From positions 3,266,624 to 3,290,623 of the forward strand of contig NZ_CP160404.1 in NCBI RefSeq assembly GCF_045348655.1: a stretch of 24,000 bases of DNA, written 5' to 3'. The notes beneath the pieces were generated by a model. That model was not told where the DNA came from, ran no database searches, and worked only from the letters and a program-made list of their open reading frames with translations. The stretch comes from Streptomyces solicamelliae (GTDB lineage Bacteria > Actinomycetota > Actinomycetes > Streptomycetales > Streptomycetaceae). Positions within the stretch are counted from its first letter, which is position 1; each line of letters begins with the position of its first letter. This document shows positions 2,350-16,997 of this stretch, piece by piece. Position numbers and translations under genes: made by a program.

Positions 2350-2859
2350 ATGCCGACGACACCGCAGCTCACCCTCGCCCCGGACCACCTGCGCACCGCC
2401 CGCCGGGCCGCCCGCCTGCTCGCCCTGTGCAGCGTGCCGTCCGGGCTGTGGCGCCTGGCGATGGCGGCGCAACTGCCCGTCGGGTACAGCACGGAGGTGC
2501 TGCGCGACGTGTACGCGATCCCCGGCTGGGGCGTCGCGTACGTCGCCGGCCTCACCGTCCTGCAGGAGTGCGCGGCGCTGCTCCCGCTGCTGGTGGCCAC
2601 CGGCCGGCTCCGCGTCCGGGCCCCCCGCACGGCGGTGCGTACCGGGCGGGTCCTGGCCGCGCTGGTCACCCTGTTCTGCCTGAGCCAGGTGCTGCTGTTC
2701 TTCTTCGTCGCCCCCGACCCGCACCTGTCCTCCTCGGGACGCCCCCTTCTCCTCGCCACGTACGCCCCGCTGGCCGCCACCGGCCCGCTGCTGGCCGTGG
2801 CGACGGCCGCCTACGCCCGCCACCACGGCGTCGCCGCCCGGCGCCGGCGACGGCCGTGA
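2350..2859 (+). CDS. Hypothetical integral membrane protein (about 4 TM helices, 169 aa)
   Basis: This is the first ATG in the frame after the regulator gene. Four hydrophobic segments are visible: LLALCSVPSGLWRLAMAA, GWGVAYVAGLTVLQECAALLPLLVA, VLAALVTLFCLSQVLLFFFVA and LLLATYAPLAATGPLLAVATAAYA. The tail is basic. No family assignment is possible by eye. Confidence 0.55.
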   Translation: MPTTPQLTLAPDHLRTARRAARLLALCSVPSGLWRLAMAAQLPVGYSTEVLRDVYAIPGWGVAYVAGLTVLQECAALLPLLVATGRLRVRAPRTAVRTGRVLAALVTLFCLSQVLLFFFVAPDPHLSSSGRPLLLATYAPLAATGPLLAVATAAYARHHGVAARRRRRP

Positions 2860-3395
2860 CACACCCCCGTCCCGGCCGTGACACCATCGACTACGTGCTC
2901 GACATCGGCTACTCCCTCTCCCGCCGCTTCCCGGACCCGCCGCAGACGGACTACCGCCGCGCGGACGTCCACGCCCTGCGCCACGACCTGTTCTGCGGCG
3001 ACGTGTACCTCGCCGACACGAAGGCGGACCGCGAGGTGTCCACAGCCTGGGGATGGGTCCCGGTGCTGGACTTCGCCTGGGCGCTGTGCGACATCGTCGA
3101 GCAGCTCGACCGCGACCCGCGCGGCAGCCGCGCCTCCCAGCCCCAGTACGCCGAGATCGACTTCACCGAGTCCACCGACCGGATGCTCTTCGAGCGCCGC
3201 TTCGGCTGGGTCGACGTCGAGGCCGACTGGATGCCCGGCGACGAGGCCCCGCTCACCTTCAACCACGCCGCACTGCGCCGCGAGTCCCGCGACTTCCTCC
3301 ACGACCTCCTCGCCGACCTCACCGACATGCACGAGGGCCTCGCCGACAACCCCGCGATCTGGACCCTCCAGTCCCGCTTCCCCCGCCTCCCCTGA
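2856..3395 (+). CDS. Hypothetical acidic cytoplasmic protein (179 aa), translationally coupled to the preceding membrane protein
   Basis: GTG 2856 overlaps the upstream stop (GTGA at 2856-2859). The coding-looking sequence is DTIDYVLDIGYSLSRRFPDPPQTDYRRADVHALRHDLFCGDVYLAD...WGWVPVLDFAWALCDIVEQL...FERRFGWVDVEADW. An alternative start is GTG 2895. The first 143 codons of track ORF 2427..3395 overlap the membrane gene out of frame and are rejected. Confidence 0.55.
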   Translation: MTHPRPGRDTIDYVLDIGYSLSRRFPDPPQTDYRRADVHALRHDLFCGDVYLADTKADREVSTAWGWVPVLDFAWALCDIVEQLDRDPRGSRASQPQYAEIDFTESTDRMLFERRFGWVDVEADWMPGDEAPLTFNHAALRRESRDFLHDLLADLTDMHEGLADNPAIWTLQSRFPRLP

Positions 3396-3799
3396 CGGGC
3401 TGCGCCTCCTCCTTCCCCGAACCGCCCCTGCCGTGCCCGGCACCCCCGCGCCGTACGCCTTCCCTCCCGGCAGCCCCCGCCGAGGGCCCGCCGCCCCGAT
3501 CACCGCGCAGGGCCCCCGGCCCGACGCGCCACCCGGCCTCGCGGCGGGTACCGCACCGCGCCGCGAGCGGATGCACCCCGAGCGTCCCGGACCACCCCGG
3601 CCGTCCCGGAACCCCCCGCCCCGACGCCGGCCGACCGCCCCGCTTCGCCGCGGGCCCCGGCCACGTCCTCCCGGTCGTCACTTCACCCAGCACCACTCAG
3701 TGTGACGTGCACCACTGACAACGCCCCCGATGTCACGAACCGCGCCGCCTCGGCCGTCGTATGCGTGACACCTCAGGGATCCGTGAAGGGACAGCAGCC

Positions 3800-4957
3800 A
3801 TGCAGCAGAACCTCACCGTCGTCGGCGGCGGCTTCGCCGGACTCACCGCCGCCATCACCGCCGCCGAGGCCGGCGCCCGCGTCACCCTGCACGAGGCGCA
3901 CGACACGCTCGGCGGGCGGGCGCGGACGGCCGAAGGCCCGTACAAGACCAACGAAGGCCCCCACGCCATCTACAACGGCGGACCCCACTGGACCTGGCTC
4001 AAGCAGCGCGACCTGCTCGGACCGCTCGCCACGCTGCCCCCGCTCGAAGCCGCCCGCTTCCGGTTCCACCGCAACGGCGCCCTGCGCCGCACGCCGCCGC
4101 TCGGCTTCCTCCGGCAGACCCTCCGGACCCCCGAACAGGCACCCGTCGACGTCGACTTCCTCACCTGGGCCGGCCGCGTCGCCGGCCCCGACACCGCCCG
4201 CGTCGCCGCCCACTACAGCGGCGTCGCGCTCTTCCACCACGACCCCGGCGCGCTCTCCGCCCGCTTCGTCCAGGAGCGGCTGCACCGCGCCGCCTCCCTG
4301 CCGCCCGAGGCGCACTACATCCGCGGCGGCTGGGGACAGCTCATCGAGCGGATGGCCGCCCGCGCCTGGAACCTCGGCGTCCACATCGAGGTCGGCTCCC
4401 GCGTCGACTCCCTGCCCGACGGCCCCGTCGTCCTCGCCACCTCCCTCCCCGCGGCCGCCCGCCTCCTCGGCGAACCCGGCCTGACCTGGGAGAGCGGCCG
4501 TACCGTCCTCCTCGACCTGGCGCTGCGCACCCGCAAGGGCGACCCGTTCGTGATCTCCGACCTCGACGCGCCCGGCTGGGTGGAACGCTTCACCGCCCAG
4601 GACCCCGGCCTCGCCCCGGCCGGCCAACAGCTCATCCAGGCCCAGCTGCCGATCGGCCCCAAGGGCTCCAAGGCCGACGGCGTCGCCCACGCCGAACGCC
4701 TCCTCGACCTCGGCTTCCCCGGCTGGCGCGAGCGCACCGTCTGGCGCCGCGAGGCCGTCGCGTCCGGCCGTACCGGCGCGGTCGACCGCCCCGGCACCAC
4801 CTGGCGCGACCGGCCCGCCATCGACCGCGGCGAGGGCGTCTACCTCGTCGGCGACCAGGTCGCGGCGCCCGGTGTGCTCTCCGAGGTCTCCTTCAACAGC
4901 GCCATCGAGGCCGTCTCGCTCGCCCTCAAGCACGCCGGCACCCCTCTGGCAGCGTGA
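3800..4957 (+). CDS. NAD(P)/FAD-dependent oxidoreductase (amine-oxidase / phytoene-desaturase-like fold)
   Basis: ATG 3800 follows GAAGGGA (3784-3790). The N-terminal Rossmann dinucleotide motif is LTVVGGGFAGLTAAITAAEAGARVTLHEAHDTLGGRA. Third-position GC is high throughout. Confidence 0.8.
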   Translation: MQQNLTVVGGGFAGLTAAITAAEAGARVTLHEAHDTLGGRARTAEGPYKTNEGPHAIYNGGPHWTWLKQRDLLGPLATLPPLEAARFRFHRNGALRRTPPLGFLRQTLRTPEQAPVDVDFLTWAGRVAGPDTARVAAHYSGVALFHHDPGALSARFVQERLHRAASLPPEAHYIRGGWGQLIERMAARAWNLGVHIEVGSRVDSLPDGPVVLATSLPAAARLLGEPGLTWESGRTVLLDLALRTRKGDPFVISDLDAPGWVERFTAQDPGLAPAGQQLIQAQLPIGPKGSKADGVAHAERLLDLGFPGWRERTVWRREAVASGRTGAVDRPGTTWRDRPAIDRGEGVYLVGDQVAAPGVLSEVSFNSAIEAVSLALKHAGTPLAA

Positions 4958-4960
4958 GGC

Positions 4961-4991
4961 TTGACCTCAACTTTGCTTGAGGGTGAAGGCT
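4961..4991 (+). promoter_or_regulatory. SoxR-box (MerR-type) promoter: -35 TTGACC, 19-bp spacer containing the dyad CCTCAA-N6-TTGAGG, -10 AAGGCT
   Basis: The sequence is TTGACCTCAACTTTGCTTGAGGGTGAAGGCT. The dyad at 4965-4982 matches the E. coli soxS operator CCTCAAGTTAACTTGAGG in both 6-bp arms. It has the same overlap with the -35 element and the same 19-bp spacer. It lies about 45 nt upstream of the quinone oxidoreductase ATG. Confidence 0.65.
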
Positions 4992-5037
4992 GGGCTCACC
5001 GACAAGAAGCGCCCCGTCCACGCAGGGAGAGCCCACC

Positions 5038-6021
5038 ATGCACGCCATCCGCCTCCACGCCTTCGGCCCCGCCGAGAACCTCACCTACGAGGAGACCGAC
5101 ACCCCCACCCCCGGCCCCGGCCAGGTCCGCATCGCCGTCGCCGCGGCCGGGGTCCACGTCGTCGACACCTCCCTGCGCCGCGGCGACACCGGCGGCCCCT
5201 TCCCCGCCCCCGAACTCCCCACCGTCCCCGGCCGCGAGGTCGCCGGCACCGTCGACGCCCTCGGCGAAGGCACCGACCCCACCTGGCTCGGCCGCCGCGT
5301 CGTCGCCCACCTCGGCTACGCCCCCGGCGGCTACGCCGAGGCCGCCGTCACCGACGCCGACCGCCTCCACCCGCTCCCCGACGACCTCGGCCCCGCAGAG
5401 GCCGTCGCCATGATCGGCACCGGCCGTACCACCCTCGGCGTCCTCCAGTTCGCCGAACCCGGCCCCGACACCGTCGCGATCGTCACCGCCGCCGCCGGCG
5501 GCATCGGCACCCTCCTCGTCCAGTACGCCAAGAACGCCGGCGCCACCGTCATCGGCCTCGCCGGCGGCCCCGCCAAGACCGCCCGCGTCCGCGACAACGG
5601 CGCCGACCTCGCCGTCGACTACACCCTCCCCGACTGGCCCGCCCGCGTACGGGAGTTCCTCGGCGACCGCACCGCCACCACCGTCTTCGACGCCGTCGCC
5701 GGCGACACCGCCCGCGCCGCCGTCGACCTCCTCGGCCCCGGCGGCACCCACCTCGCCTACGGCTGGGCCCCCGACGCCGCCCCCCTCACCTTCACCGACG
5801 AGGAACTCGCCACCCACGGCATCACCTCCGTCACCCCCCTCGGCCCGCAGATGCTCGACAAGGCCGGCGGCCTCCGCGCCCTCGAGACCCGCTCCCTCGC
5901 CGAAGCCGCCACCGGCCGCCTCCGCCCCGCCGTCCACCCCTTCCCCCTCGCCGAGGCTGCCGCCGCCCACCGAGCCCTGGAGACCCGCGGCACCACGGGA
6001 AAGGTCGTCCTGATCCCGTAG
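5038..6021 (+). CDS. Zinc-type alcohol dehydrogenase / NADPH:quinone oxidoreductase (MDR superfamily)
   Basis: The 327-aa translation reads MHAIRLHAFGPAENLTYEETDTPTPGPGQVRIAVAAAGVHVVDTSLRRG...PGREVAGTV. The nucleotide-binding stretch is AIVTAAAGGIGTLLVQYAKNAGATVIGLAG and the C-terminus is GKVVLIP. RBS GGGAGAG lies at 5025-5031. Confidence 0.9.
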   Translation: MHAIRLHAFGPAENLTYEETDTPTPGPGQVRIAVAAAGVHVVDTSLRRGDTGGPFPAPELPTVPGREVAGTVDALGEGTDPTWLGRRVVAHLGYAPGGYAEAAVTDADRLHPLPDDLGPAEAVAMIGTGRTTLGVLQFAEPGPDTVAIVTAAAGGIGTLLVQYAKNAGATVIGLAGGPAKTARVRDNGADLAVDYTLPDWPARVREFLGDRTATTVFDAVAGDTARAAVDLLGPGGTHLAYGWAPDAAPLTFTDEELATHGITSVTPLGPQMLDKAGGLRALETRSLAEAATGRLRPAVHPFPLAEAAAAHRALETRGTTGKVVLIP

Positions 6022-6039
6022 GGGCAGCAGGAGAAACGA

Positions 6040-6074
6040 GAGCGGCCCGGTCCGCCGACGGAACCGGGCCGCTC
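6040..6074. terminator. Hairpin between convergent genes (12-bp stem GAGCGGCCCGGT / ACCGGGCCGCTC, 11-nt loop)
   Basis: A perfect inverted repeat is seen directly. It sits between the stop at 6021 (+) and the stop at 6105 (-). Confidence 0.6.
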
Positions 6075-6104
6075 CCGACCACCACGAACAGAGGACTCGA
6101 GGAC

Positions 6105-6584
6105 CTACTCTCCCCCCGCCCCCAAAGCCCCCAACGCCCCGTCCGTCAGCCGGTACACCGTCCACTCGTCCTGCGGCCGCGCGCCCAGCGACTCGTAGAA
6201 CGCGATCGACGGCGCGTTCCAGTCGAGGACCGACCACTCCAGCCGCTCGTACCCGCGCTCCACGCAGATCCGCGCCAACTGCGTCAGCAACGCCTTCCCG
6301 TACCCGCCGCCCCGGTGCTCCGGACGCACGTACAGGTCCTCGAGATAGATCCCGTGCACCCCCCGCCACGTCGAGAAGTTGAGGAACCACAGACAGAACC
6401 CCGCGACCTCCCCCTCCGCGGTCTCCGCGATGTGCGCGAACGCCGCCGGCCGCTCCCCGAACAGCGCCTCGTGAAGCTGCGCCTCCGTCGCCCGCGCCTC
6501 GTCGAGCGCCTTCTCGTACTCCGCGAGCTCACGGACCATCGCGTGAATGACAGGAACATCTGCAGGTGTAGCCGTACGAATCAT
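6105..6584 (-). CDS. GNAT-family N-acetyltransferase (diamine/spermidine acetyltransferase-like)
   Basis: The start is ATG at 6582-6584 (MIRTATPADVPVIHAMVRELAEYEKAL...). The acetyl-CoA motif is YVRPEHRGGGYGKALLTQL. The 87 codons upstream in track ORF 6105..6845 are Arg/Gly/Pro-rich and contain the 9-bp repeat; they are rejected. Confidence 0.85.
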   Translation of the reverse strand: MIRTATPADVPVIHAMVRELAEYEKALDEARATEAQLHEALFGERPAAFAHIAETAEGEVAGFCLWFLNFSTWRGVHGIYLEDLYVRPEHRGGGYGKALLTQLARICVERGYERLEWSVLDWNAPSIAFYESLGARPQDEWTVYRLTDGALGALGAGGE

Positions 6585-6678
6585 GGGATCAGCATGAGTC
6601 CCCGACCGCCTACCGTGCCAGCAGCGTCCGCGCGATGGACACCTGTACCGCGTCCAGCACGGCCTCCCCGTTCTCCCC

Positions 6679-6719
6679 GTCCTCGGCGTCCTCGGCGTCC
6701 TCGGCGTCCTCGGCGTCCC
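6679..6719. repeat. 9-bp tandem repeat (GTCCTCGGC) x4 plus a partial fifth unit
   Basis: Read directly as gtcctcggc gtcctcggc gtcctcggc gtcctcggc gtccc. It lies in the 315-bp gap between the divergent GNAT and FAD-oxidoreductase genes. Confidence 0.9.
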
Positions 6720-6899
6720 ACAACGCGTTCTGCAGCACCCGCCCGAGCGTCCACGCCCGCCCCGCTCACGGTCGACAAAAGCCCGCCCCGCAGCCCCCTT
6801 GAACCCAACCTGCGTCTCCACCGGCTCTTCCGGAATCCGGATCACACCAGAATGCTAGGCACCAGCAACTCCACCCTCCCCCGGCTCACGAGGAACACC

Positions 6900-8297
6900 A
6901 TGAGCACCACGGCCACGGTCAACGGCGGCATCTCCTTCTGGTACGCACAGGAAGGCACCCCCGCACCCCGCGAACCGCTGCCCGGGGACACCACGGCCGA
7001 CGTCTGCATCGTCGGCGGCGGCTACACCGGCCTGTGGACCGCGTACTACCTCAAGAAGGCCGTCCCCTTCCTCAACATCACCGTCCTCGAAGCCAAGTTC
7101 TGCGGATACGGCGCCTCCGGCCGCAACGGCGGCTGGCTCTACAACGGCATCGCCGGCCGCGACCGCCACGCCCGGGTCCACGGCCACGAACCCGCCGCCC
7201 GCCTCCAGCAGGCCATGAACCACACCGTCACCGAGGTCATCGACGTCTGCGCCACCGAAGGCATCGACGCCGACATCCACCGCGGCGGCGTCCTCGAAGT
7301 CGCCCTCACCCCCGCCCAACTGACCCGCCTCAAGGAGTTCCACGCCCGCGAACTCGCCTTCGGCGAGAAGGAACGCGAACTCCTCGGCGCCCGCGAAACC
7401 GCCGAACGCATCCGCGTCTTCGGCGCCGTCGGCTCCAGCTGGACCCCCCACGGCGCCCGCCTCCACCCGGCGAAACTGGCGAAGGGCCTGGCGGCAGCAG
7501 TAGAAGCCCTCGGCGTGACGATCCACGAATCCACCCCGGTCACCGAGATCAAGCCCAAACACGCCGTCACCCCCTACGGCACCGTCCGCGCCCCCTACGT
7601 ACTGCGCTGCACCGAAGGCTTCACCGCCTCCCTCACCGGCCAGCGCCGCACCTGGCTCCCCATGAACTCCTCCATGATCGCCACCGACCCCCTCCCCGAC
7701 GCCCTCTGGGACGAGATCGGCTGGACCGGCCTGGAAACCCTCGGCGACATGGCCCACGCCTACATGTACGCCCAGCGCACCGCCGACGGCCGCATCGCCC
7801 TCGGCGGCCGAGGCGTCCCCTACCGCTACGGCTCGAAGACCGACAACGACGGCCGCACGCAAGAGAAGACGATCGACGCCCTCCGGGACATCCTCACCAC
7901 CCTCTTCCCCCAACTCGCCGGCATCGGCATCGCCCACGCCTGGTCCGGCGTCCTCGGCGTCCCCCGCGACTGGTGCGCCACCGTCACCCTCGACCGCTCC
8001 ACCGGCCTCGGCTGGGCCGGCGGCTACGTCGGCTCCGGCGTCGCCACCGCCAACCTCGCCGCCCGCACCCTCCGCGACCTCATCCAGCAGGACTCCGGCC
8101 AGGGCGGCCCCACCGACCTCACGACCCTCCCCTGGGTCGACCACAAGGTCCGCAAATGGGAACCCGAACCCCTCCGCTGGCTCGGCGTCCAGGCCATGTA
8201 CGCCGCCTACCGCACCGCCGACCGCCAGGAATCCACTACCCACACCCCCACCACCGCCCCCCTCGCCCGCCTCGCCGACCACCTCAACGGCCGCTGA
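6900..8297 (+). CDS. FAD-dependent oxidoreductase, DAO family (gamma-glutamylputrescine oxidase / PuuB-OrdL-like)
   Basis: ATG 6900 follows GAGGA (6889-6893). An alternative start is ATG 6852. The FAD motif is DVCIVGGGYTGLWTAYYL, followed by EAKFCGYGASGRNGGW. Only the last 465 codons of the 1106-aa track ORF look like protein. Confidence 0.85.
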   Translation: MSTTATVNGGISFWYAQEGTPAPREPLPGDTTADVCIVGGGYTGLWTAYYLKKAVPFLNITVLEAKFCGYGASGRNGGWLYNGIAGRDRHARVHGHEPAARLQQAMNHTVTEVIDVCATEGIDADIHRGGVLEVALTPAQLTRLKEFHARELAFGEKERELLGARETAERIRVFGAVGSSWTPHGARLHPAKLAKGLAAAVEALGVTIHESTPVTEIKPKHAVTPYGTVRAPYVLRCTEGFTASLTGQRRTWLPMNSSMIATDPLPDALWDEIGWTGLETLGDMAHAYMYAQRTADGRIALGGRGVPYRYGSKTDNDGRTQEKTIDALRDILTTLFPQLAGIGIAHAWSGVLGVPRDWCATVTLDRSTGLGWAGGYVGSGVATANLAARTLRDLIQQDSGQGGPTDLTTLPWVDHKVRKWEPEPLRWLGVQAMYAAYRTADRQESTTHTPTTAPLARLADHLNGR

Positions 8298-8313
8298 CCC
8301 CGGAAACGCAAAA

Positions 8314-8338
8314 GGCCCGGGTTCCAGAAACCCGGGCC
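8314..8338. terminator. Bidirectional intrinsic terminator (GGCCCGGGTT ccaga AACCCGGGCC), flanked by AAAA on the plus strand, which is a U-tract for the minus-strand gene
   Basis: A perfect 10-bp stem lies between convergent stops at 8297 (+) and 8368 (-). The rc reads GGCCCGGGTTTCTGGAACCCGGGCCTTTTGC. Confidence 0.7.
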
Positions 8339-8367
8339 CCTCACCCCACCCACCTCACCAGCCGGGA

Positions 8368-10509
8368 CTACTCCACCTCGATCCCGAAGTCCCCCACCAA
8401 CTCCCCCAACCCACCCCGATACCCCTTACCGCCCAGCACGAAATCCCAGTCCCCACTCGCCCGCCGCCGGAACGACCCCAACACCAACGCCGTCTCCCCA
8501 GGACGCCCGTCCGACACCACCAACTGATCCAACTCCACGCCCGAATCGTCCCGAAGCCTGATCCCCGCATCCACGAACCCCGACAGATCCGCATCAGGAT
8601 TCACCTCGGGATCCACGGCCGCCACCAGCACCAACCGATCCGCCCGCGCCGGCAGCGCGTCGAAACCCACCCGCACCGCCGCCCGATCCCCCGACACCGC
8701 CGGCACCATCCTCACCGCGCCATCAGGCGTCCCCGGATTGTTGAAGAAGACGAAGAACTCGTCCCCCAACACCCGGTCCCCCTCACACACCAGCGCACAC
8801 ACGTCCAAGGCCACCGGCCCCGACCACACCATCCCCAGCACACTGAAGTCGTCCTCAGCCTCCGGAGGAGCCACAGGCCCACGCCCCGACGCCTGAGCAG
8901 GAACCCCCACACCCGCACCCGCACCGCCGCCGAGCCGCCCCCGCAGCCCATGCTGATGCAGCAGATCCACCAACTCCGCACCCGAGATCAACGTCAGCGG
9001 CTTGCCATTGGCGAACGTGTACGACCCCGGACCAAAACCCGACGTCGTCACCAACACCCCCTTGTTCGCCCCCGCCCCCTGCACCGTCCCGTACAGATCC
9101 CGCACCGCACTCGGCGGCACCGTGTTCCGATACCGCTTCGCCTGCACGATGATCGAACCACCACTGATCGGATCCGGATCCAACGCCTCCACGTCAACCC
9201 CGCCGTCATTCGACCGACGCGTCGTCACCGCCTGCAGCCCCCGCGCCCGGAACAACTCAGCAACCAACCCCTCGAACGCAATCGGATCCATCGACAACAA
9301 GTCCGGCTCCGCACCCTCACCATGCGACACCACACCCGACCCCACCTGCTCCGGCGTCAGCAACGGCACCACCGCCACCCGCTCATCAGGCTTCGCCGAC
9401 AACCGCCCCGACAAGGCGCCCGTCACACACTCCACGGCGCTGACCAACTCCAGGTTCAGCCCGTCGAAAACCCCACGCTCCACCATCACCGACGCCACAC
9501 ACACCCGCGACGCCACCCCCGTCGCCGGATCCACACCGCCGACGAAACCGTTCAACGCCACACCCTGCAGAACACCGAACGGATCCGCGGCAAACAACTC
9601 ACGCACCGCCAACAACACACTCTGCGCCAGCACATCCCGATACAGCGCCCGCCGCTGCGTCACCGGCCGCGCCACTTCCCGCTCCTGATCCGTACTGGGC
9701 AGATACTTGATCCCCTTGGCCGCCGGCACCACCTCGTACCCCGGCAAATCCCAGTCCAGCACCAACCCCCGAGCCGACCGGTCGTACGCCGCCGACACCT
9801 CCCGCGGAAACCCCTCAGGCCACGCGGTCGACGCGTACAACACCGCCGAGAAGAACTCCACCACCGTCTCGGCATCCCCAGACCGCAGCGACTCCACCAT
9901 CCCGGCAATACCACTGTTGTGCGCCCGCACCTCCGCAAGCCGCCCTGCAGCCCACGCCTCGTACTGTGCCCGATACGCCGCCAACTGCTCCTGCCGCTGC
10001 GCCTCAGCCGCCTGCGCCGCATACCAGTCCTGCTCAAAACGCGCCCGCGCCTGCTGCTCCGCCTGCGCCCGCCCAGCCGGCGTCCAACCCCCCTGCGCCT
10101 GATACGACCGCTGATCCGGCATCGGCACCGGCACCGCCAACCGCCCAGGCGCAAACGGCTCCAACTCCTCCGACCGCCGCAACGAATCCACCGAGAACAC
10201 CGGCGCCGCACACCCCGACGCCAACAACCCCTCCAGCAACGCCACCCGCTCGTCCAGCTCCCGCGTCCGCCGCAACGCATCCGCATCCCGATGCTGCCGA
10301 TACGCCGCCCGCTGCTCCCGCTGCATCCGCGCCACATCACGCTCATGCGCCCGCTGCGCACGCTCCGCATCCCGCTGCTGCCGCAACACCGCCTGCAGCT
10401 GCCCCTCCCGCTCCCGCTGCGCCACCCGCTGCGCCTCGGCCCATGCACCGATCAACCCACTGGAACGCCGACTCACCGGCCGCACCCCTCCCCAGAACAC
10501 CCCACACAT
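8368..10509 (-). CDS. Multidomain protein: N-terminal Q/R/A/E-rich coiled coil, unassigned middle domain, Mrr-type (PD-(D/E)xK) restriction-endonuclease domain, C-terminal TerD domain
   Basis: Track ORF 8368..10566. I place the start at ATG 10507-10509 (MCGVFWGG...) because the first 19 codons overlap the tRNA terminator hairpin. Nuclease motifs are DPIAFEGLVAELF, GGVDVEA and IIVQAKRY (about nt 8947-9294). TerD motifs are DEFFVFFNNPGTPDGAV, LVLVAAV and WDFVLGGKGYRGGLGELVGDFGIEV (about nt 8371-8853). Confidence 0.8.
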   Translation of the reverse strand: MCGVFWGGVRPVSRRSSGLIGAWAEAQRVAQREREGQLQAVLRQQRDAERAQRAHERDVARMQREQRAAYRQHRDADALRRTRELDERVALLEGLLASGCAAPVFSVDSLRRSEELEPFAPGRLAVPVPMPDQRSYQAQGGWTPAGRAQAEQQARARFEQDWYAAQAAEAQRQEQLAAYRAQYEAWAAGRLAEVRAHNSGIAGMVESLRSGDAETVVEFFSAVLYASTAWPEGFPREVSAAYDRSARGLVLDWDLPGYEVVPAAKGIKYLPSTDQEREVARPVTQRRALYRDVLAQSVLLAVRELFAADPFGVLQGVALNGFVGGVDPATGVASRVCVASVMVERGVFDGLNLELVSAVECVTGALSGRLSAKPDERVAVVPLLTPEQVGSGVVSHGEGAEPDLLSMDPIAFEGLVAELFRARGLQAVTTRRSNDGGVDVEALDPDPISGGSIIVQAKRYRNTVPPSAVRDLYGTVQGAGANKGVLVTTSGFGPGSYTFANGKPLTLISGAELVDLLHQHGLRGRLGGGAGAGVGVPAQASGRGPVAPPEAEDDFSVLGMVWSGPVALDVCALVCEGDRVLGDEFFVFFNNPGTPDGAVRMVPAVSGDRAAVRVGFDALPARADRLVLVAAVDPEVNPDADLSGFVDAGIRLRDDSGVELDQLVVSDGRPGETALVLGSFRRRASGDWDFVLGGKGYRGGLGELVGDFGIEVE

Positions 10510-10528
10510 ACGCCCCCGTAACGCACAA

Positions 10529-10557
10529 GTGTCCCGGATCAGAGTGATCCGGGACAC
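10529..10557 (-). terminator. Hairpin immediately 3' of tRNA-Thr (13-bp perfect stem GTGTCCCGGATCA / TGATCCGGGACAC, 3-nt loop)
   Basis: The perfect inverted repeat is read directly. It lies 12 nt downstream of the tRNA 3' end on the minus strand. The following sequence, TTGTGCGTT, is only weakly U-rich. Confidence 0.55.
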
Positions 10558-10568
10558 ACGTTTCACAG

Positions 10569-10644
10569 AGCCCCCTGTCGGATTCGAACCGACGACCTAT
10601 GTATTACAAGTACATCGCTCTGGGCCGGACTGAGCTAAGGAGGC
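10569..10644 (-). tRNA. tRNA-Thr (anticodon UGU)
   Basis: Hand-folded cloverleaf from the rc. Acceptor GCCTCCT/AGGGGGC (one G-U pair). D arm GCTC-AGTCCGGCCCA-GAGC. Anticodon arm ATGTA-CTTGTAA-TACAT, with the anticodon at plus-strand 10606-10608. Variable loop AGGTC. T arm GTCGG-TTCGAAT-CCGAC. Discriminator T. No CCA is encoded. Confidence 0.85.
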
Positions 10645-10804
10645 ACGCCTCAGCCGCGCTCGCACGCAGGAAGCTCTCCCACTGTACACAGCCCCGTGAG
10701 TCGCCAGCGAAGAATTCACGACCCCCCGTAACCACCTGCCCACACGTTCGTTGACCGGACTGAAGTGCAGGTCCGGATATCGGACAGCAGGGCGGGGAGG
10801 GGCC

Positions 10805-12208
10805 ATGGCGGAGCCGTCGGAGGAGATACCGCGGCGTGTGATCGGCGCTGAGGCGAAGCGGGTGAAGCGCGTGACGCTGGGCATCGCCGACCGGCATGAG
10901 CGACACGGCCGCGCCTCCGGAGCCATGAAGCAGCGGCGCCAGGACCCGGGAACCCAGCAACGGACCTACCGCTACCGCTTCTACCCCACCCCCGACCAGG
11001 CCGAGCAGCTGACCAAGACCTTCGGGGCCTGCCGCTGGGTCTACAACGAGGGGCTGGCCCTCCGTGCCGGCGCGTGGGAGCAGCACAGAGTGTCCGTCGG
11101 ATTCGCGGAGACCTGTCGGGCTCTCACGGGGTGGAAGCGGGAGGAGGGACGGGAGTGGCTGCGTGAGGTCTCGTCGACGGTGCTGCAGCAGGCGCTGCGG
11201 CATCTGGACGGTGCGTTCTCACGCTTCTTCAGGAAGTCCGCGAAGTACCCGAAGCGGAAGAAGAAGGGGCGGTCGCGGGACTCTGCGATCTACGTCCGGA
11301 CAGGCTTCAAGTGGGTGGAGGATCCGGAGCGGCCGGGGACGGGTCTGGTGACGCTGGCGAAGCAGACTGTGCCGCTCGACATCCGCTGGTCCCGCCCTCT
11401 GCCGGCCGGGCAGGTACCGGTACGTCTGAATGTCACGCGGGACAGAGCGGGGCGGTTCTTCCTCTCCGTACTGGTCGAGGAACGCATCGAGCCACTGCAG
11501 CCGGTGTTCCTCCCCGGCACGTACGCGCCGAAGGCCGTGGGTCTTGATCTCGGTCTGGCGGCCTTGGTCACGATGGACGACGGGTCGGTGCTGGAACATC
11601 CGCGGCTGCTGAGAAAACACGGAGAGGAACTGGCTCGTCGGCAGCGGCAGCTGCACCGCAAACAGAAGGGGTCGAAGAACCGGGGGAAGGCGCGCAAGCG
11701 CATCGCCCGCCTGTACGCGCTCATCGGTGACGTACGGAGAGATCTCCTGGATCAGTTCACCACCCGCCTCGTGCGCGAGAACCAAGTGCTCGTGGTGGAG
11801 GATCTTCCGATCGCAAATCTCATGCGCCCGGCTCGAGGCAAAGGGCGCCGGCGGAAGGCAAAGCTGAACCAGGCCATCAGGGATGCGGCCTGGGGTGAGC
11901 TGCTGCGTCAGCTGCGCTACAAGTGTGAGTGGTACGGGCGGACCCTGGTGATCGTGGACCGGTGGTTTCCGTCGACCCGCCGCTGCTCGGCCTGCCACGC
12001 GAAGGGACCGCGCCTGGATGTGTCGGTCCGGGAGTGGGTCTGCGCGGAGTGCGGCGCGATTCACGGCCGGGACCACAACGCGGCCGTGAACCTGCGAGAC
12101 GAGGGGATGCGGCTGTACTGGCTGGTGGCAGCGGCGCTGCCGCCAGGCAGGGCCGTGCCTGCTCTGATCAAGGCGTCAGAACTGCCGGACGTCTTGATCG
12201 CCGCCTAG
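10805..12208 (+). CDS. tnpB: TnpB (IS605 OrfB-family RNA-guided endonuclease)
   Basis: Hallmarks are the N-terminal RTYRYRFYPTPDQ motif, the RuvC triad D (AVGLDLG, GAT 11546-11548), E (LVVEDL) and D (GRDHNAAVNL), and the zinc ribbon CSACH...CAECG. I chose ATG 10805 because of a strong SD (GGAGG 10796-10800) and high third-position GC in the 40 codons before ATG 10925, which is the alternative and more canonical-length start. Confidence 0.85.
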   Translation: MAEPSEEIPRRVIGAEAKRVKRVTLGIADRHERHGRASGAMKQRRQDPGTQQRTYRYRFYPTPDQAEQLTKTFGACRWVYNEGLALRAGAWEQHRVSVGFAETCRALTGWKREEGREWLREVSSTVLQQALRHLDGAFSRFFRKSAKYPKRKKKGRSRDSAIYVRTGFKWVEDPERPGTGLVTLAKQTVPLDIRWSRPLPAGQVPVRLNVTRDRAGRFFLSVLVEERIEPLQPVFLPGTYAPKAVGLDLGLAALVTMDDGSVLEHPRLLRKHGEELARRQRQLHRKQKGSKNRGKARKRIARLYALIGDVRRDLLDQFTTRLVRENQVLVVEDLPIANLMRPARGKGRRRKAKLNQAIRDAAWGELLRQLRYKCEWYGRTLVIVDRWFPSTRRCSACHAKGPRLDVSVREWVCAECGAIHGRDHNAAVNLRDEGMRLYWLVAAALPPGRAVPALIKASELPDVLIAA

Positions 12209-12440: not shown

Positions 12441-12555
12441 ACAGATCGGACACCGGCCAGGTACCGTCACCGAGAGTTCACTGCGGTGGACTAGACCCAT
12501 CTTCCTTTACAACGGATCGTCCGGCACGTTCCTGCCGGTGAAGGGACGCATCACC

Positions 12556-13653
<1,098 letters not shown>

Positions 13654-13677
13654 CCCGCCCGAGCGACAGCCGCACCC

Positions 13678-13706
13678 GGCCCCGTACCTGTTGCAGGTGC
13701 GGGGCC
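13678..13706 (+). terminator. msiK terminator hairpin (12-bp stem GGCCCCGTACCT / AGGTGCGGGGCC with one G-U pair, 5-nt loop)
   Basis: The inverted repeat lies 25 nt after the msiK stop and is followed by GCCGTGCGTTTCC. Confidence 0.6.
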
Positions 13707-13849
13707 GCCGTGCGTTTCCGCCCGAGTCGACGAATACCGGGCGATCCCGCCGCCGCGCGTCAACACGGGATTCGAAAAACCACCTCGAACCGTCCCCCGC
13801 GAGAGTGACTAAATGTCGCCATATCACTACCGGCCGCTACGCTCGCTCC

Positions 13850-14263
13850 GTGACCCACACAGCCCGCCGCATCGGCCGCTCTCTCGCACTCGTCCTGCCC
13901 GTCGTCCTGGTGCTCTCCGGAACGCTCGCGGTGTCCGCCGTTCCGTGGGCCGGACAGGCCCAGGGGACCCAGATGCTGAGCGCGTCCTCCGCGGACGTCT
14001 CGACGCCCGCCAAGTCCCGTGCGCCGCAGGATATTCTGCGCGACCGGCTGCTCGCAGAGCTTCAGCAGAAGGACCCCGGGACGGCGCTGACCCACTTGCA
14101 GCGCGAGGTCGAGGCGCGTCCGTCGCTCGCCAGGCACTGCATGGACATCGCCCGCGCCCTCGGCCGCGCCGCCGTGAAGCAGTACGGCCCCACGCGCGCC
14201 CAGTCCTTCTCGCGCCCGGTCTGCGACACGTCCTTCGCGACCGGCGTCATGGCCGCCTCCTGA
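13850..14263 (+). CDS. Small secreted hypothetical protein (signal peptide; about 137 aa)
   Basis: The frame is that of track ORF 13511..14263. GTG 13850 gives (M)THTARRIGRSLALVLPVVLVLSGTLAVSAVPWAGQAQG, with a positive n-region, an h-region and an AQA-type cleavage site. An alternative start is GTG 13805. No clear SD is present. Confidence 0.55.
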   Translation: MTHTARRIGRSLALVLPVVLVLSGTLAVSAVPWAGQAQGTQMLSASSADVSTPAKSRAPQDILRDRLLAELQQKDPGTALTHLQREVEARPSLARHCMDIARALGRAAVKQYGPTRAQSFSRPVCDTSFATGVMAAS

Positions 14264-14356
14264 GCCGCCCCGCAGGCCGGCTCCCGAGCGGCCTCCCGCG
14301 GCGCCCCCTGAGCGCCGTCCCCGTCCCTCCGCGAGGGGGCGCATATCGTTCGCCGT

Positions 14357-15073
14357 ATGCATACCTCTCCGACGCAGGCGGTGGTCCTGGCGGGTGGCCA
14401 GGGCTCGCGTCTGCGCCCCTACACCGACGACCGCCCCAAGCCGATGGTCGAGATCCCGGGCACCGGGACCCCGATCATCGGCCATCAGCTTTCCTGGCTG
14501 GCCTCCGAGGGCGTCACCGACGCCGTCGTGTCCTGCGGCCATCTCGCCGAGGTGCTCCAGGACTGGCTGGAGAGCGCCGAGCTGCCGCTCCGGGTGACCA
14601 CGGTCGTCGAGTCGGAGCCGCTGGGCCGCGGCGGCGGCCTCAAGTACGCCGCCGCGCATCTCCCCGAGCCGGGGCAGCCCTGGTACGCCACCAACGGCGA
14701 CATCTGGACCCGCTTCTCGCTGCGTGACATGGCCGAGTTCCACGCCGAGCGGGACGCCACCGCCACCCTGGCCCTGGCCCGCCCCCGCATCCCGTGGGGC
14801 GCCGTCGAGACCGACGCCTTCGGTCACATCACGGACTTCATCGAGGCACCGCCCTCCCCGTACCTCATCAACGCGGGCGTGTACGTCTTCTCCGCGGACT
14901 TCACCGACCAGCTCCCGGAGCGCGGGGACCACGAACGCACCACGTTCCCCCGGCTGGCCCGGGAGCGGCGGCTCGCCGGCTATCCGCTGCCGCAGGGCGC
15001 GTACTGGCGGGCGATCGACACCGCCAAGGACCTCACGGAGGCGGCGAAGGAGCTGGCGGGGACGCGTACCTGA
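14357..15073 (+). CDS. Sugar-phosphate nucleotidyltransferase (NDP-sugar pyrophosphorylase, ManC/RmlA-like)
   Basis: The N-terminal motif AVVLAGGQGSRLRPYTDDRPKPMVEI is the G-x-G-T/S-R-L signature of NTP_transferase enzymes. The product is 238 aa. Confidence 0.85.
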   Translation: MHTSPTQAVVLAGGQGSRLRPYTDDRPKPMVEIPGTGTPIIGHQLSWLASEGVTDAVVSCGHLAEVLQDWLESAELPLRVTTVVESEPLGRGGGLKYAAAHLPEPGQPWYATNGDIWTRFSLRDMAEFHAERDATATLALARPRIPWGAVETDAFGHITDFIEAPPSPYLINAGVYVFSADFTDQLPERGDHERTTFPRLARERRLAGYPLPQGAYWRAIDTAKDLTEAAKELAGTRT

Positions 15074-15230
15074 GGCACGTACGGAGACGCGTACCTGAGG
15101 CACGTACGGAGACGCGTACCTGAGGCACGTACGGGGACGGGTACCTGAGGCACGTACGGGACGGGAGGCAGGTACGGAGACGGGGTGCCTTTGAGTCCCG
15201 TACCTGCGTCCCGTACCCGAGTCCCGTACG
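15064..15230. repeat. 25-bp tandem repeat (GCGTACCTGAGGCACGTACGGAGAC) x4, followed by degenerate and inverted GTACG-containing copies
   Basis: Units lie at 15064-15088, 15089-15113 (identical), 15114-15138 (1 mismatch) and 15139-15162 (24 bp, 2 mismatches plus the 1-nt deletion). The region 15163-15230 contains GGTACGGAGAC and the reverse-oriented GTCCCGTACC x3. The first unit contains the stop codon of the nucleotidyltransferase. Confidence 0.9.
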
Positions 15231-15235
15231 TACGA

Positions 15236-15270
15236 GAGGGGCGGCGCACCCGGCAGGTGCGCCGCCCCTC
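15236..15270. terminator. Bidirectional terminator hairpin (15-bp perfect stem GAGGGGCGGCGCACC / GGTGCGCCGCCCCTC, 5-nt loop)
   Basis: The perfect inverted repeat lies between convergent stops at 15073 (+) and 15283 (-) and is followed by TTCGTG. Confidence 0.75.
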
Positions 15271-15282
15271 TTCGTGCCGGGC

Positions 15283-16827
15283 TCAGCCCAGGAGCCCGCC
15301 GATCGGGTTCCTGTTGCCCGCGCCGGAGGACGAGCCGCCCTCCTCGTTGCCGCCGCCGTCGGAGGAGCCGCCGTCGCCGGCGCCGCCGGTGCCGGTGGGG
15401 CCGGGCGGGGGCGGCGGGGGGTCGGCCGGGCCGGACTGGCCGGGCGCGTCGTCGCCGGAGCCCTGGGTGGCGGTGGGGCGCTGCTCGACGGAGCCGGACT
15501 CGCGGACGGTCTCGGAGGGGGAGGACTCGCCCTTCGGCTCGTCGTCGTCCTCGGTGCCCTCGCCGCCCGTGCGGGAGGGCGAGGGGCGGGACTCGGCGGT
15601 CCGGGAGGGGCTGCGCTCGCCGGGCTCGGGCGGGAGCGGCTGGCCGGGGAGGTGGTTGATGGGGTCGTCGTCGCGCCCGGGGACGGTGACCATCTCGGTG
15701 GAGCGGACGGCGCCGCCGAGCATGGAGCCGATGAGGAGGGTCAGGCCGATGACGACGGCGGTGACGACGGCGCCGCGGCGCAGGACGCGACGGCGGAGGT
15801 CCCAGAGTTCGGAGCGGGGTCCGAGGGTGCGCCAGGCTTCGCCGGCGAGGCGGCCGTCGATGGAGTAGACGGGGGCGCCGGCGATGATCAGGGGGGACCA
15901 GGCGGCGAGGTAGATGATGTCGGGCGCGTCGTAGACGGGGACGGTCTTCCAGCTGACGGTGAGGATCAGCGCGGCGGAGAGCAGGGCGCCGACGACGGCG
16001 GCGACGCGCTGCCAGAGGCCGAGGACGGTGAGGACGCCGACGACGACCTGGAGGAAGGCGACGGTGAGGCCGGCGCCGACGGGGTGGGCGAGGGCGAAGT
16101 CGCGCAGGGGTTCGGCGAGGCCCCAGGGGTGGAGCGAGTTGAGCCACTTGACCATGGAGCCGCGTTCGCCGCCGTCGAAGTAGACGGGGTCGCAGAGTTT
16201 GCCCATGCCGGCGTAGATGGAGATGAAGCCGAGGAAGACGCGGAGCGGGAGGAGCACCACGCCGAGGTTCATGCGGCGGCCGGGGTAGTAGGCGTGCCGG
16301 AGGGGATCGGCGGCGTGGCGGCGGGCGCGTTCGTCGGTGCCGTCGCCGTGGTTGTCGTGGTTGCCGTAGTCGCTGTAGTCGCTGTAGTCGCCGTCGCCGT
16401 ATCCGCCGCGGGCCGGTTCCGTCTCGTAGACCTCGTCGTACGCGCCTTCCGCGCGCCGCATGGGGGGCAGCAGCGGGGCGGCGGGGACGATGGGGGTGGG
16501 CATCGTCTGGTCGATGCGCGGGATGGTCTGGGTGGCGCCGGTGTCCGGGGGTTCGAGCGTGGAGACGGAGGATTCCCGTACGGCCTGGAGGAGTCCGGTG
16601 GCGCCCGGGGAGGATTTGCCGGTCCATACGACGGGGGTGCGTCGTCGTGCGGCGCCGGCCGCGGCGGCGCGGGGGACGGCGAACCGGGGCTGCTGGGCGG
16701 GGCCGAGCCGGACGCGGAAGCTGGCGTGGTTCACGATGACCTGCGCGGGGTCGGAATCCACTTTGATCATGCTCAGCGCGGGCTGATCGTCGAATCCCGG
16801 CCGGGGAGTTCTTGTGTCCACACTCAT
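15283..16827 (-). CDS. DoxX-family integral membrane protein with long disordered N- and C-terminal extensions
   Basis: The central block is LGVVLLPLRVFLGFISIYAGMGKLCDP...LTVAFLQVVVGVLTVLGLWQRVAAVVGALLSAALILTVSW, which is DoxX-like with about 4 TM helices plus one more TM. The C-terminal tail is P/G/S/D-rich. The N-terminus contains DYSDYSDY encoded by a short tandem repeat. The start is ATG 16825-16827; in-frame alternatives lie downstream. Confidence 0.75.
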   Translation of the reverse strand: MSVDTRTPRPGFDDQPALSMIKVDSDPAQVIVNHASFRVRLGPAQQPRFAVPRAAAAGAARRRTPVVWTGKSSPGATGLLQAVRESSVSTLEPPDTGATQTIPRIDQTMPTPIVPAAPLLPPMRRAEGAYDEVYETEPARGGYGDGDYSDYSDYGNHDNHGDGTDERARRHAADPLRHAYYPGRRMNLGVVLLPLRVFLGFISIYAGMGKLCDPVYFDGGERGSMVKWLNSLHPWGLAEPLRDFALAHPVGAGLTVAFLQVVVGVLTVLGLWQRVAAVVGALLSAALILTVSWKTVPVYDAPDIIYLAAWSPLIIAGAPVYSIDGRLAGEAWRTLGPRSELWDLRRRVLRRGAVVTAVVIGLTLLIGSMLGGAVRSTEMVTVPGRDDDPINHLPGQPLPPEPGERSPSRTAESRPSPSRTGGEGTEDDDEPKGESSPSETVRESGSVEQRPTATQGSGDDAPGQSGPADPPPPPPGPTGTGGAGDGGSSDGGGNEEGGSSSGAGNRNPIGGLLG

Positions 16828-16922
16828 CTAACCGAGTGATGTGGGTTTAGGACACTGCCTTGACGGCCGATGAATGTCCGAGACCCGTCAAGATCGGCGG
16901 GTATGGGCGGGAAGTACGGAAA

Positions 16923-16947
16923 GGGCCCAGCTCAGAGAGCCGGGCCC
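16923..16947 (-). terminator. Probable rlmB terminator hairpin (GGGCCCAGCTC aga GAGCCGGGCCC, one mismatch)
   Basis: It lies about 50 nt downstream of the rlmB stop. On the minus strand the hairpin is followed by TTTCCGT. Confidence 0.5.
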
Positions 16948-16997
16948 GGTCCGGGGTGTGCGGTGTGACGCCGTGCGGTGCGGTGCGATGCGCTGCG

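Follow-up and report, generated by a model that had tools for sequence, protein, structure and literature searches.

What does a TerD domain do when it is attached to a restriction-type nuclease? This question is raised by a gene in a 24,000-nucleotide (nt) stretch of Streptomyces solicamelliae DNA (contig NZ_CP160404.1, positions 3,266,624 to 3,290,623; hereafter the window), whose product combines an Mrr-type nuclease core with a C-terminal TerD-type domain. Over decades, TerD proteins have been associated with resistance to tellurite, with the inhibition of phages, and with development in Streptomyces; to our knowledge, no molecular function has been agreed for them. Our analysis of this nuclease-TerD protein points, with moderate confidence, to a solitary Mrr (PD-QxK) endonuclease, Type IV-like in character, that is gated or localised by its TerD domain. 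The Mrr-TerD pairing makes two questions concretely approachable, namely the binding target of TerD and its possible regulation of a partner, because a TerD domain that apparently lacks Ca2+ binding—its only well-established property—is here wired to an easily assayed enzyme, and this in two clades.

Domain architecture and nuclease core

From its N terminus, the 702-amino-acid (aa) protein reads as a helical hairpin, an unassigned α/β domain, an Mrr_cat nuclease domain, and a TerD domain. The earlier note on this DNA had read three parts directly from the translation—a coiled-coil-like N terminus, Mrr_cat, and TerD—and this architecture is borne out, the Q/R/A/E-rich N-terminal region being modelled as one long helical hairpin. 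All the peptide strings quoted at that stage were located in the translation of 8368..10566 on the minus strand, which is the enclosing open reading frame (ORF) track of 732 aa. The structural boundaries given below come from an AlphaFold2 model of the 702-aa protein built on 131 homologues, with a mean predicted local distance difference test score (pLDDT) of 86.9; the predicted template-modelling score is abbreviated pTM.

8368..10476, minus strand: nuclease-TerD gene encoding the 702-aa protein, with a GTG start at 10476 and a TAG stop at 8368-8370 (ORF list)
9883..10455, minus strand: N-terminal long helical hairpin, residues 8-198 (AlphaFold2, pLDDT >90 over both helices)
9292..9882, minus strand: middle α/β domain, residues 199-395, with no family or fold assignment (domain-only model, pLDDT 89.1, pTM 0.82)
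8959..9297, minus strand: Mrr_cat PD-(D/E)xK nuclease domain, residues 394-506 (Pfam PF04471)
9136..9195, minus strand: predicted catalytic residues D428 (in GGVD), Q445, and K447 (in VQAKRY), in conserved columns of alignments A1 and A2
8845..8940, minus strand: low-complexity Gly/Ala/Pro linker, residues 513-544 (pLDDT <50 for 517-541)
8371..8844, minus strand: C-terminal TerD-type β-sandwich, residues 545-702 (Pfam PF02342, PDB sequence matches, Foldseek)

The true start of the protein is the GTG at 10476 rather than position 10509, because a database protein with 100% identity to the 702-aa sequence (P0001, annotated as "restriction endonuclease" in Streptomyces sp. HUAS MG47) begins there, and because the start codon and ribosome-binding site are conserved in orthologues. 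Position 10476 is ATG in 25 of 28 aligned orthologues, and a conserved GGGGAGGGG precedes it. Several long plus-strand ORFs overlie the nuclease gene (e.g., 8950..10521, 523 aa, Pro/Arg/His-rich), and these were rejected as genes since the minus-strand frame holds all the profile matches.

The evidence that carries our reading begins with the nuclease itself, whose catalytic core is intact. Mrr_cat (PF04471) matched with an E value of 3.5e-30, scoring 104.9 bits against a cut-off of 21 and spanning positions 2-115 of the 115 in the profile, at residues 424-536 of the 732-aa track. D...(Q/E)xK is the catalytic motif of Mrr-type enzymes, and the D...QxK form is typical of them. Five residues (E402, D424, G426, Q445, and K447) are invariant among the 131 homologues, with D428 kept in ≥90% of them. 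The match lies at the coordinates that had been predicted and, together with this conservation of D/QxK, it upholds the earlier claim of a nuclease with intact catalytic residues. Structural comparison by Foldseek agrees, since the nuclease part matches the nuclease domains of MspJI, AspBHI, AF1548, and other restriction-fold proteins, while its weak matches include the nuclease domains of Cdn1 and Can2. No Mrr_N winged-helix domain was matched in the protein by Pfam at E ≤1.

The same residues that match Mrr_cat also gave a weak match to NA-iREase1 (PF22722; 31.4 bits against a cut-off of 27), a family that is listed for all the homologues. This would fit a protein of the NACHT-associated inactive restriction endonuclease type, that is, a catalytically dead scaffold. 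We consider such a role very improbable, because Mrr_cat scores 104.9 bits on this very stretch, the catalytic residues are conserved, and the protein holds no NACHT or STAND domain.

A TerD domain without its canonical Ca2+ loop

The identity of the C-terminal domain is equally well founded in profile, sequence, and structural matches. TerD (PF02342) matched with an E value of 6.3e-19 (68.6 bits against a cut-off of 25.3) at residues 584-727 of the 732-aa track (nt 8386-8817). In a PDB sequence search, this part matched the solved TerD proteins 3ibz and 2kxt with E values of ~1e-12, and Foldseek aligned the β-sandwich to 3ibz with an E value of 7e-11 and a template-modelling (TM) score of 0.69, with 2kxt also matched. 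The description of a "complete C-terminal TerD fold" in the earlier note therefore stands for the fold and its coordinates and not for its completeness: the match spans positions 38-187 of the 187 in the profile, leaving the first ~37 uncovered, and the first TerD strands seem to be missing or replaced, so that the domain is not strictly complete.

What distinguishes this domain is its metal-binding loop. Where 3ibz and 2kxt have the canonical HTGDNxTGEGxGDDE, the protein has M-----VPAVSGDRA in the alignment: five residues are gone and only one Asp remains. The canonical TerD Ca2+ site thus appears to be lost, as had been suspected from the translation, and alignment to the two solved proteins confirms that suspicion. 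The C-terminal TerD motifs (ETA...G.YR...W.F...G.GY..GL) are kept. When conservation was computed as mean identity per region among 52 orthologues, the Mrr domain came first (91%) and TerD was the second most conserved domain (82%), followed by the helices and middle domain (70-76%) and, far behind, the linker (34%). Every folded domain is strongly conserved, and the TerD domain is under strong constraint.

Retention of the C-terminal TerD motifs with loss of the metal loop, in a domain joined to the enzyme by a flexible linker, would also suit a docking module. Such a module would hetero-oligomerise with free-standing TerD proteins and thereby anchor the nuclease or keep it sequestered, for instance close to the envelope, the point of entry for foreign DNA. 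Free-standing TerD-family proteins are abundant in Streptomyces. On the other side, no ter genes are present among the window neighbours scanned, and we regard a docking role as unlikely; it differs from the explanation we prefer only in the binding partner of TerD.

Helical hairpin, middle domain, and linker

The remaining parts of the protein are less readily assigned to a function. The two helices of the hairpin (residues 8-82 and 133-198) are ~70 residues each and are joined by a proline-rich connector with a conserved P120. This region is alignable throughout the wider nuclease family in the alignments of 131 homologues, and we infer that it is an oligomerisation or spacer module. The middle domain yielded no significant match to Pfam or PDB sequences in searches extended to E ≤10, and its best Foldseek match in the PDB had an E value of 0.014 and a TM score <0.3. 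It nonetheless carries motifs that are conserved in the family: PxxFP, LVVEYELP, YxYVK, FNG, and DPATG. Residues 517-541 of the linker are predicted to be disordered.

A large restriction-like family with more than one TerD branch

The nuclease-TerD protein belongs to a large family. The PADLOC mREase_IV model PDLC03663, labelled "Type IV methyl-directed restriction enzyme," matches residues 43-539 of the 732-aa track over profile positions 21-526 of 544, with an E value of 6.7e-59. This qualifies the earlier description of the protein as uncharacterised, which holds in that no experimental characterisation was found and the source names are all generic, and does not hold if taken to mean unrecognised, in view of the PADLOC match. 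An exhaustive search over cluster representatives at 50% identity returned 821 clusters at E<1e-30, mostly proteins of ~520-600 aa whose alignment is confined to residues 1-515. The named members belong to Actinomycetota, Chloroflexota, and Alphaproteobacteria, and are always called "restriction endonuclease" or "restriction system protein." A search of the protein against NCBIfam gave no match, and one against PHROGs gave only unnamed or generic families.

Forms that bear a TerD domain are a small part of this family, amounting to 7 of the 120 best profile matches, and they occur in Streptomyces, Kitasatospora, Actinomadura, and metagenomes. The Mrr-TerD fusion is already visible in the precomputed Pfam annotations of hundreds of database entries. 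In a neighbour-joining tree with simple midpoint rooting, computed from the region shared by TerD-fused and TerD-less forms, the Streptomycetaceae TerD forms and the Actinomadura/metagenome TerD forms lie at opposite ends, with ~100 TerD-less members between them, and the nearest relative of the Streptomyces TerD group is itself a TerD-less protein (P0129). The Ca2+ loop is absent in both TerD-fused clades. Because the two TerD-bearing clades are well separated in the nuclease tree, this suggests that TerD was fused to the nuclease more than once.

The contexts in which the relatives are found are informative as well. A TerD-less member lies in a defence island of Micromonospora polyrhachis (L082/L083, 3646-14691), where it is directly followed by DarT and a Macro-domain (DarG-like) gene, and where the flanks hold a STAND-type NTPase, an AAA_30 helicase-like gene, and a PLD/helicase/DUF3427 gene. 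Other TerD-less relatives are carried by 16-52 kb plasmids of Methylobacterium, Clostridium, and Methylocystis, and relatives are also found on 52 IMG/VR viral contigs; among GenBank phage records there were only short Mrr-domain matches. On one metagenomic scaffold (L137, 6172-10124), the genes of two paralogues, one of 528 aa and TerD-less, the other of 707 aa and TerD-fused, are neighbours in divergent orientation. A phage-type integrase and a gene for a single-stranded DNA-binding protein lie within a few genes of them, and the two paralogues may form a two-gene arrangement. Yet other relatives are lone genes among ordinary metabolic genes.

Proposed function

How might such a protein work? 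The nuclease is predicted from its sequence to be a Mg2+-dependent DNA endonuclease; its middle domain would recognise DNA or a modification, its hairpin would mediate oligomerisation, and the enzyme as a whole would restrict foreign or modified DNA. TerD, devoid of the Ca2+ loop and added via a disordered linker in the Streptomycetaceae branch, would gate or localise the nuclease, with either a small ligand or a protein of the TerD family as its binding partner. No DNA methyltransferase was found among the 10 neighbouring genes scanned, in which the sole methylase is a SpoU RNA methylase ~6.5 kb off. With no adjacent methyltransferase, self-DNA would have to escape cleavage in one of two ways: the enzyme acts on modified or foreign DNA only, or it stays inactive.

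How TerD would exert control can be put more specifically. Published predictions cast TerD as a ligand-binding sensor domain, perhaps for nucleotide derivatives, and connect Ter systems with McrBC-like restriction (PMC7159879, PMC3710099, PMC7824862). A tentative extension, which we hold to be possible, is that TerD without its Ca2+ site acts as an allosteric receptor—the signal being either a small molecule akin to a nucleotide or nucleoside or a partner from the TerD network—and switches on an otherwise silent Mrr nuclease. If this were true, the protein would be a single-chain sensor-effector analogous to the CARF- and SAVED-nucleases, it would provide the first direct, assayable output for what the TerD domain senses, and the fusion of TerD in two clades would reflect selection for sensor-nuclease coupling. 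CARF and SAVED domains themselves are found neither in the protein (by Pfam) nor among the 10 neighbouring genes scanned.

Several points weigh against a Type IV-like restriction enzyme under TerD control. First, the N-terminal region is not the Mrr_N winged helix that E. coli Mrr has, and Pfam, PDB, and Foldseek searches revealed no likeness of the middle domain to any known modified-base reader. Second, the "Type IV" label of the PADLOC model is purely a homology-based classification, and a literature search found no experimental characterisation of any family member. Third, the 10 neighbours scanned include no Ter operon (TerZ/A/B/C/E, TelA, and similar), no signal-making enzyme, and no other defence gene. 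Fourth, the gene is stably kept on the chromosome within one large Streptomyces clade, which is unusual for defence genes. Finally, given the simple midpoint-rooted neighbour-joining tree, one ancient fusion followed by many losses is possible in place of a recurrent one. A defence role stays plausible because the wider TerD-less family occurs in defence and mobile contexts. Our analysis also flags a large restriction-like family, classed as Type IV by homology alone, with a 200-residue central domain that has no detectable relatives, and a conserved solitary nuclease of this kind could be a barrier to the entry of foreign or methylated DNA in Streptomyces genetics.

Conservation of the locus in Streptomyces

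Relatives were found in at least 249 species genomes by a scan with exact peptide words, which gives a lower bound, and loci were compared for the best 80 of these at least 249 species loci (L001-L080). A convergent DAO-type FAD oxidoreductase gene lies downstream in 66 of the 80, an MsiK-like ATP-binding cassette (ABC) ATPase gene lies upstream in 57, and, with the nucleotidyl transferase and DoxX protein genes, the upstream genes are present in 50-57 of the 80. In the window, the order of the neighbours over 12538-17960 is MsiK-like ABC ATPase, nucleotidyl transferase, DoxX-domain protein, and SpoU methylase. The median identity of the nuclease-TerD protein is 78%, against 72-90% for its neighbours, and the gene evolves at about their pace. 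This is at odds with the "typical setting for defence cargo" proposed in the earlier note, since the same neighbours recur in 57-66 of the 80 species and TnpB is present in only 11. Neither is the gene universal at this locus with a housekeeping role already assigned: orthologues at 62-68% identity in more distant Streptomyces sit at other loci, and no such role is assigned.

We take the cysS-msiK region of Streptomyces coelicolor (SCO4235-4240, with SCO4236-SCO4240 corresponding to 12538-17960) to be similar in gene order. In that species, SCO4241 is listed as a proteinase and a contractile-injection-system cluster (SCO4242-4260) follows msiK; we identified neither an S. coelicolor orthologue of the nuclease-TerD gene nor a link to the SCO4242-4260 cluster.

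The fixed chromosomal position and the purifying selection across many species, in a gene that stands apart from mobile-element hallmarks (TnpB being found in only 11 of 80 loci), speak for a host-domesticated nuclease. Such an enzyme would degrade the cell's own DNA in stress or developmental hyphal death, or process DNA under stress, with TerD coupling it to the network of TerD paralogues; studies of tdd8 and SCO2368 reportedly link TerD paralogues to Streptomyces development. We find domestication somewhat unlikely, because the location of the gene differs in more distant Streptomyces, because plasmids, viral contigs, and a defence island house the closest TerD-less relatives, and because the Ca2+ site behind the known physiology of TerD is missing. 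A restriction-type endonuclease gated or localised by TerD remains the explanation that we prefer.

Flanking elements and strand-asymmetric codon usage

The elements that flank the gene are listed below.

8304..8338, minus strand: GC-rich terminator-like hairpin GGCCCGGG...CCCGGGCC followed by a T-run, past the stop codon (sequence)
10529..10557, minus strand: 12-bp hairpin in the tRNA-gene spacer, GTGTCCCGGATC-ACTCT-GATCCGGGACAC (sequence; conserved in ~24 loci)
10568..10644, minus strand: tRNA-Thr(TGT), co-oriented with the gene and 92 nt upstream of its start codon (ARAGORN)
10925-12208, plus strand: IS605-family TnpB element with HTH_OrfB_IS605, OrfB_IS605, and Cas12f1-like TNB domains (domain scan)

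The bracketing of the gene by a terminator and a tRNA, as reported earlier, was found again, with the T-run hairpin at ~8304-8338 and the tRNA-Thr at 10568-10644. In 28 related loci, this tRNA is likewise found upstream, at a distance of <400 bp and in most cases of 87-102 nt. Because the spacer at 10476-10568 shows no room for an obvious separate promoter, the nuclease gene may be co-transcribed with tRNA-Thr. The stem of the spacer hairpin displays a compensatory T:A to C:G change among the ~24 loci, and a conserved TTGTGCGTTACGGGGG comes after it; this hairpin is a candidate tRNA terminator, processing site, or attachment site. The downstream hairpin is common to the nuclease gene and the convergent FAD-oxidoreductase gene, and we infer from its sequence that it acts as a terminator. 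A terminator consensus scan matched at 8328-8316, which is at shuffle level (2 found against 2.1 expected).

TnpB occupies the interval from tRNA-Thr to the MsiK-like gene, and 11 of 80 species have it at this site; the TnpB loci include L001-L003, L005, L006, L039, L046, L047, L059, and L078. In the distant L078, TnpB is 75% identical and the nuclease 66%. The 3' flank of tRNA-Thr is variable in a derived clade within L007-L080, where inserts of 0.3 to >10 kb separate the tRNA from the nuclease gene, and in L015 a degenerate tRNA-like remnant lies beside the gene with the full tRNA 3.5 kb away, a pattern such as an integrating element would leave.

Codon usage in the nuclease gene is markedly atypical. 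Its third positions are 70% G, 17% T, and 12% C, against 49-85% C in the other genes scanned, with TnpB intermediate (51% G, 33% C). TTG accounts for 38 of 65 Leu codons and GGG for 49 of 79 Gly codons, and GAT outnumbers GAC. Among orthologues, the frequency of G at third positions ranges from an ordinary 0.24 to an extreme 0.74. The convergent FAD-oxidoreductase gene and the gene for a Zn-dependent alcohol dehydrogenase are unusually rich in C at third positions, and across species the bias co-varies, with mirrored sign, with that of the FAD-oxidoreductase gene (Spearman -0.71). A foreign origin of the anomaly can thus be ruled out, given that orthologues differ in the strength of the bias and that its mirror image is present in the neighbouring gene.

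The skewed tract extends over ~2500-10650 of the window and is strongest at 7500-10500, with an abrupt onset at tRNA-Thr and a decay over ~5 kb. Among polarised synonymous changes, C>T and G>T prevail on the nuclease coding strand and the complementary G>A and C>A in the opposite-strand neighbour; read on the tRNA-sense strand, the polarised substitutions are C>T and G>T irrespective of gene orientation. The divergent msiK beyond the tRNA shows C>T on its own coding strand. The tract looks like damage to an exposed single strand, and its polarity fits two candidate processes, tRNA read-through transcription (with R-loops) or an origin-like process. Mutagenesis of a non-template strand that an R-loop leaves exposed is a known route (PMC4691750, PMC4083084). 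Double-strand-break resection was rejected as the source, since the strand polarity expected from it is the reverse of that observed. Where the tRNA is directly upstream, the median skew of the loci is 0.40, against -0.075 otherwise (Mann-Whitney p 1e-11), and all 11 TnpB loci are in the high-skew group. The tRNA-adjacency states cluster on the phylogeny, and the skew is only modest at some of the loci next to the tRNA; tRNA adjacency was ruled out as a proven cause of the skew because the association clusters by phylogeny.

These observations bear on whether the gene is recent defence cargo, brought in by the neighbouring TnpB/insertion sequence (IS) element or by a tRNA-integrated element. 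A TnpB gene adjoins the tRNA, the tRNA-Thr flank holds inserts of variable length (0.3 to >10 kb) in other species, and the codon usage is atypical, all of which would be expected of cargo. We nevertheless find recent acquisition hardly credible: the same flanks are present in 57-66 of 80 loci, including species without TnpB, and the codon anomaly is read as mutational rather than foreign because it is lineage-specific and mirrored by a neighbouring housekeeping gene. In order of plausibility, the alternatives to our preferred explanation are thus the domesticated nuclease, the docking module and, both much less likely, the inactive scaffold and recent IS-borne cargo.

Two side observations complete the description of the window. 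ARAGORN called a 103-nt "tRNA-Gly(GCC)" at 5436-5538 on the minus strand, within the Zn-dependent alcohol dehydrogenase gene (5038-6021, plus strand), which is probably a false positive. Other very long Pro/Arg-rich ORFs occur in the window, e.g., one of 1106 aa at 4977-8297 on the plus strand, crossing real genes in another frame or on the other strand; these long overlapping ORFs are regarded as mirror-frame by-products of the ~70% G+C content.

Comparison with known systems

The closest known relatives are the ~520-550 aa proteins of the PADLOC PDLC03663 family, whose alignment with the present protein runs over the full length of hairpin, middle domain, and Mrr_cat core, with an identity of 30-47%. 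Two differences stand out. Most members end near residue 515, whereas the protein described here adds a linker and TerD, and relatives are found on plasmids, on viral contigs, and in a defence island, whereas the gene here is chromosomally fixed in a Streptomyces clade. With E. coli Mrr and other Mrr_cat Type IV enzymes, the protein shares the catalytic domain family and the D...QxK motif; its gene, like theirs, is solitary and has no cognate methyltransferase beside it. Unlike E. coli Mrr, it is without Mrr_N, its N-terminal 395 residues being made up of the hairpin and the unassigned domain. By sequence, it belongs both to the Mrr_cat superfamily and to the PADLOC mREase_IV family and, because there is no Mrr_N domain, it is not a canonical E. 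coli Mrr-type enzyme. SCO2863 (ScoA3IV), a known Type IV enzyme of S. coelicolor, was considered as a member of the same family and rejected, as it is of the PUA/DUF3427 type (PMC6765204).

Outside TerD, the best solved structural matches are MspJI and AspBHI (4f0p, 4oc8; E 4e-7 to 3e-6), in which a reader domain precedes a C-terminal Mrr-like nuclease. However, the root-mean-square deviation is 16-22 Å over >300 columns and the middle domain alone has no match to their SRA-like reader, so the resemblance probably lies mainly in the nuclease domain of the model. The TerD proteins of known structure—Klebsiella TerD (2kxt), and 3ibz and SCO6318 (2qz7) from S. coelicolor—have the same β-sandwich fold and C-terminal motifs. 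Here, by contrast, TerD is fused to an enzyme, is without the first ~37 profile positions or the GDNxTGEGxGDDE loop, and has no ter operon nearby.

The last two comparisons concern the way in which a sensor and a nuclease are brought together. The CARF-nucleases Can2 and Cdn1 and the SAVED-nuclease Cap4 likewise place a putative ligand-binding domain and a PD-(D/E)xK nuclease on one chain; the sensor here is TerD, and there is no signal-producing enzyme among the 10 neighbours scanned. This parallel is a functional speculation by analogy and implies no homology of the sensors. Ter-linked McrBC-like DNA-processing systems, predicted by Anantharaman, Iyer and Aravind (2012) and outlined in the summary given by PMC3710099, join TerD-type components with a restriction-type nuclease in an anti-phage context. 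Whereas the systems in that summary are multi-gene operons, the S. solicamelliae protein unites an Mrr-type nuclease and TerD in a single chain.

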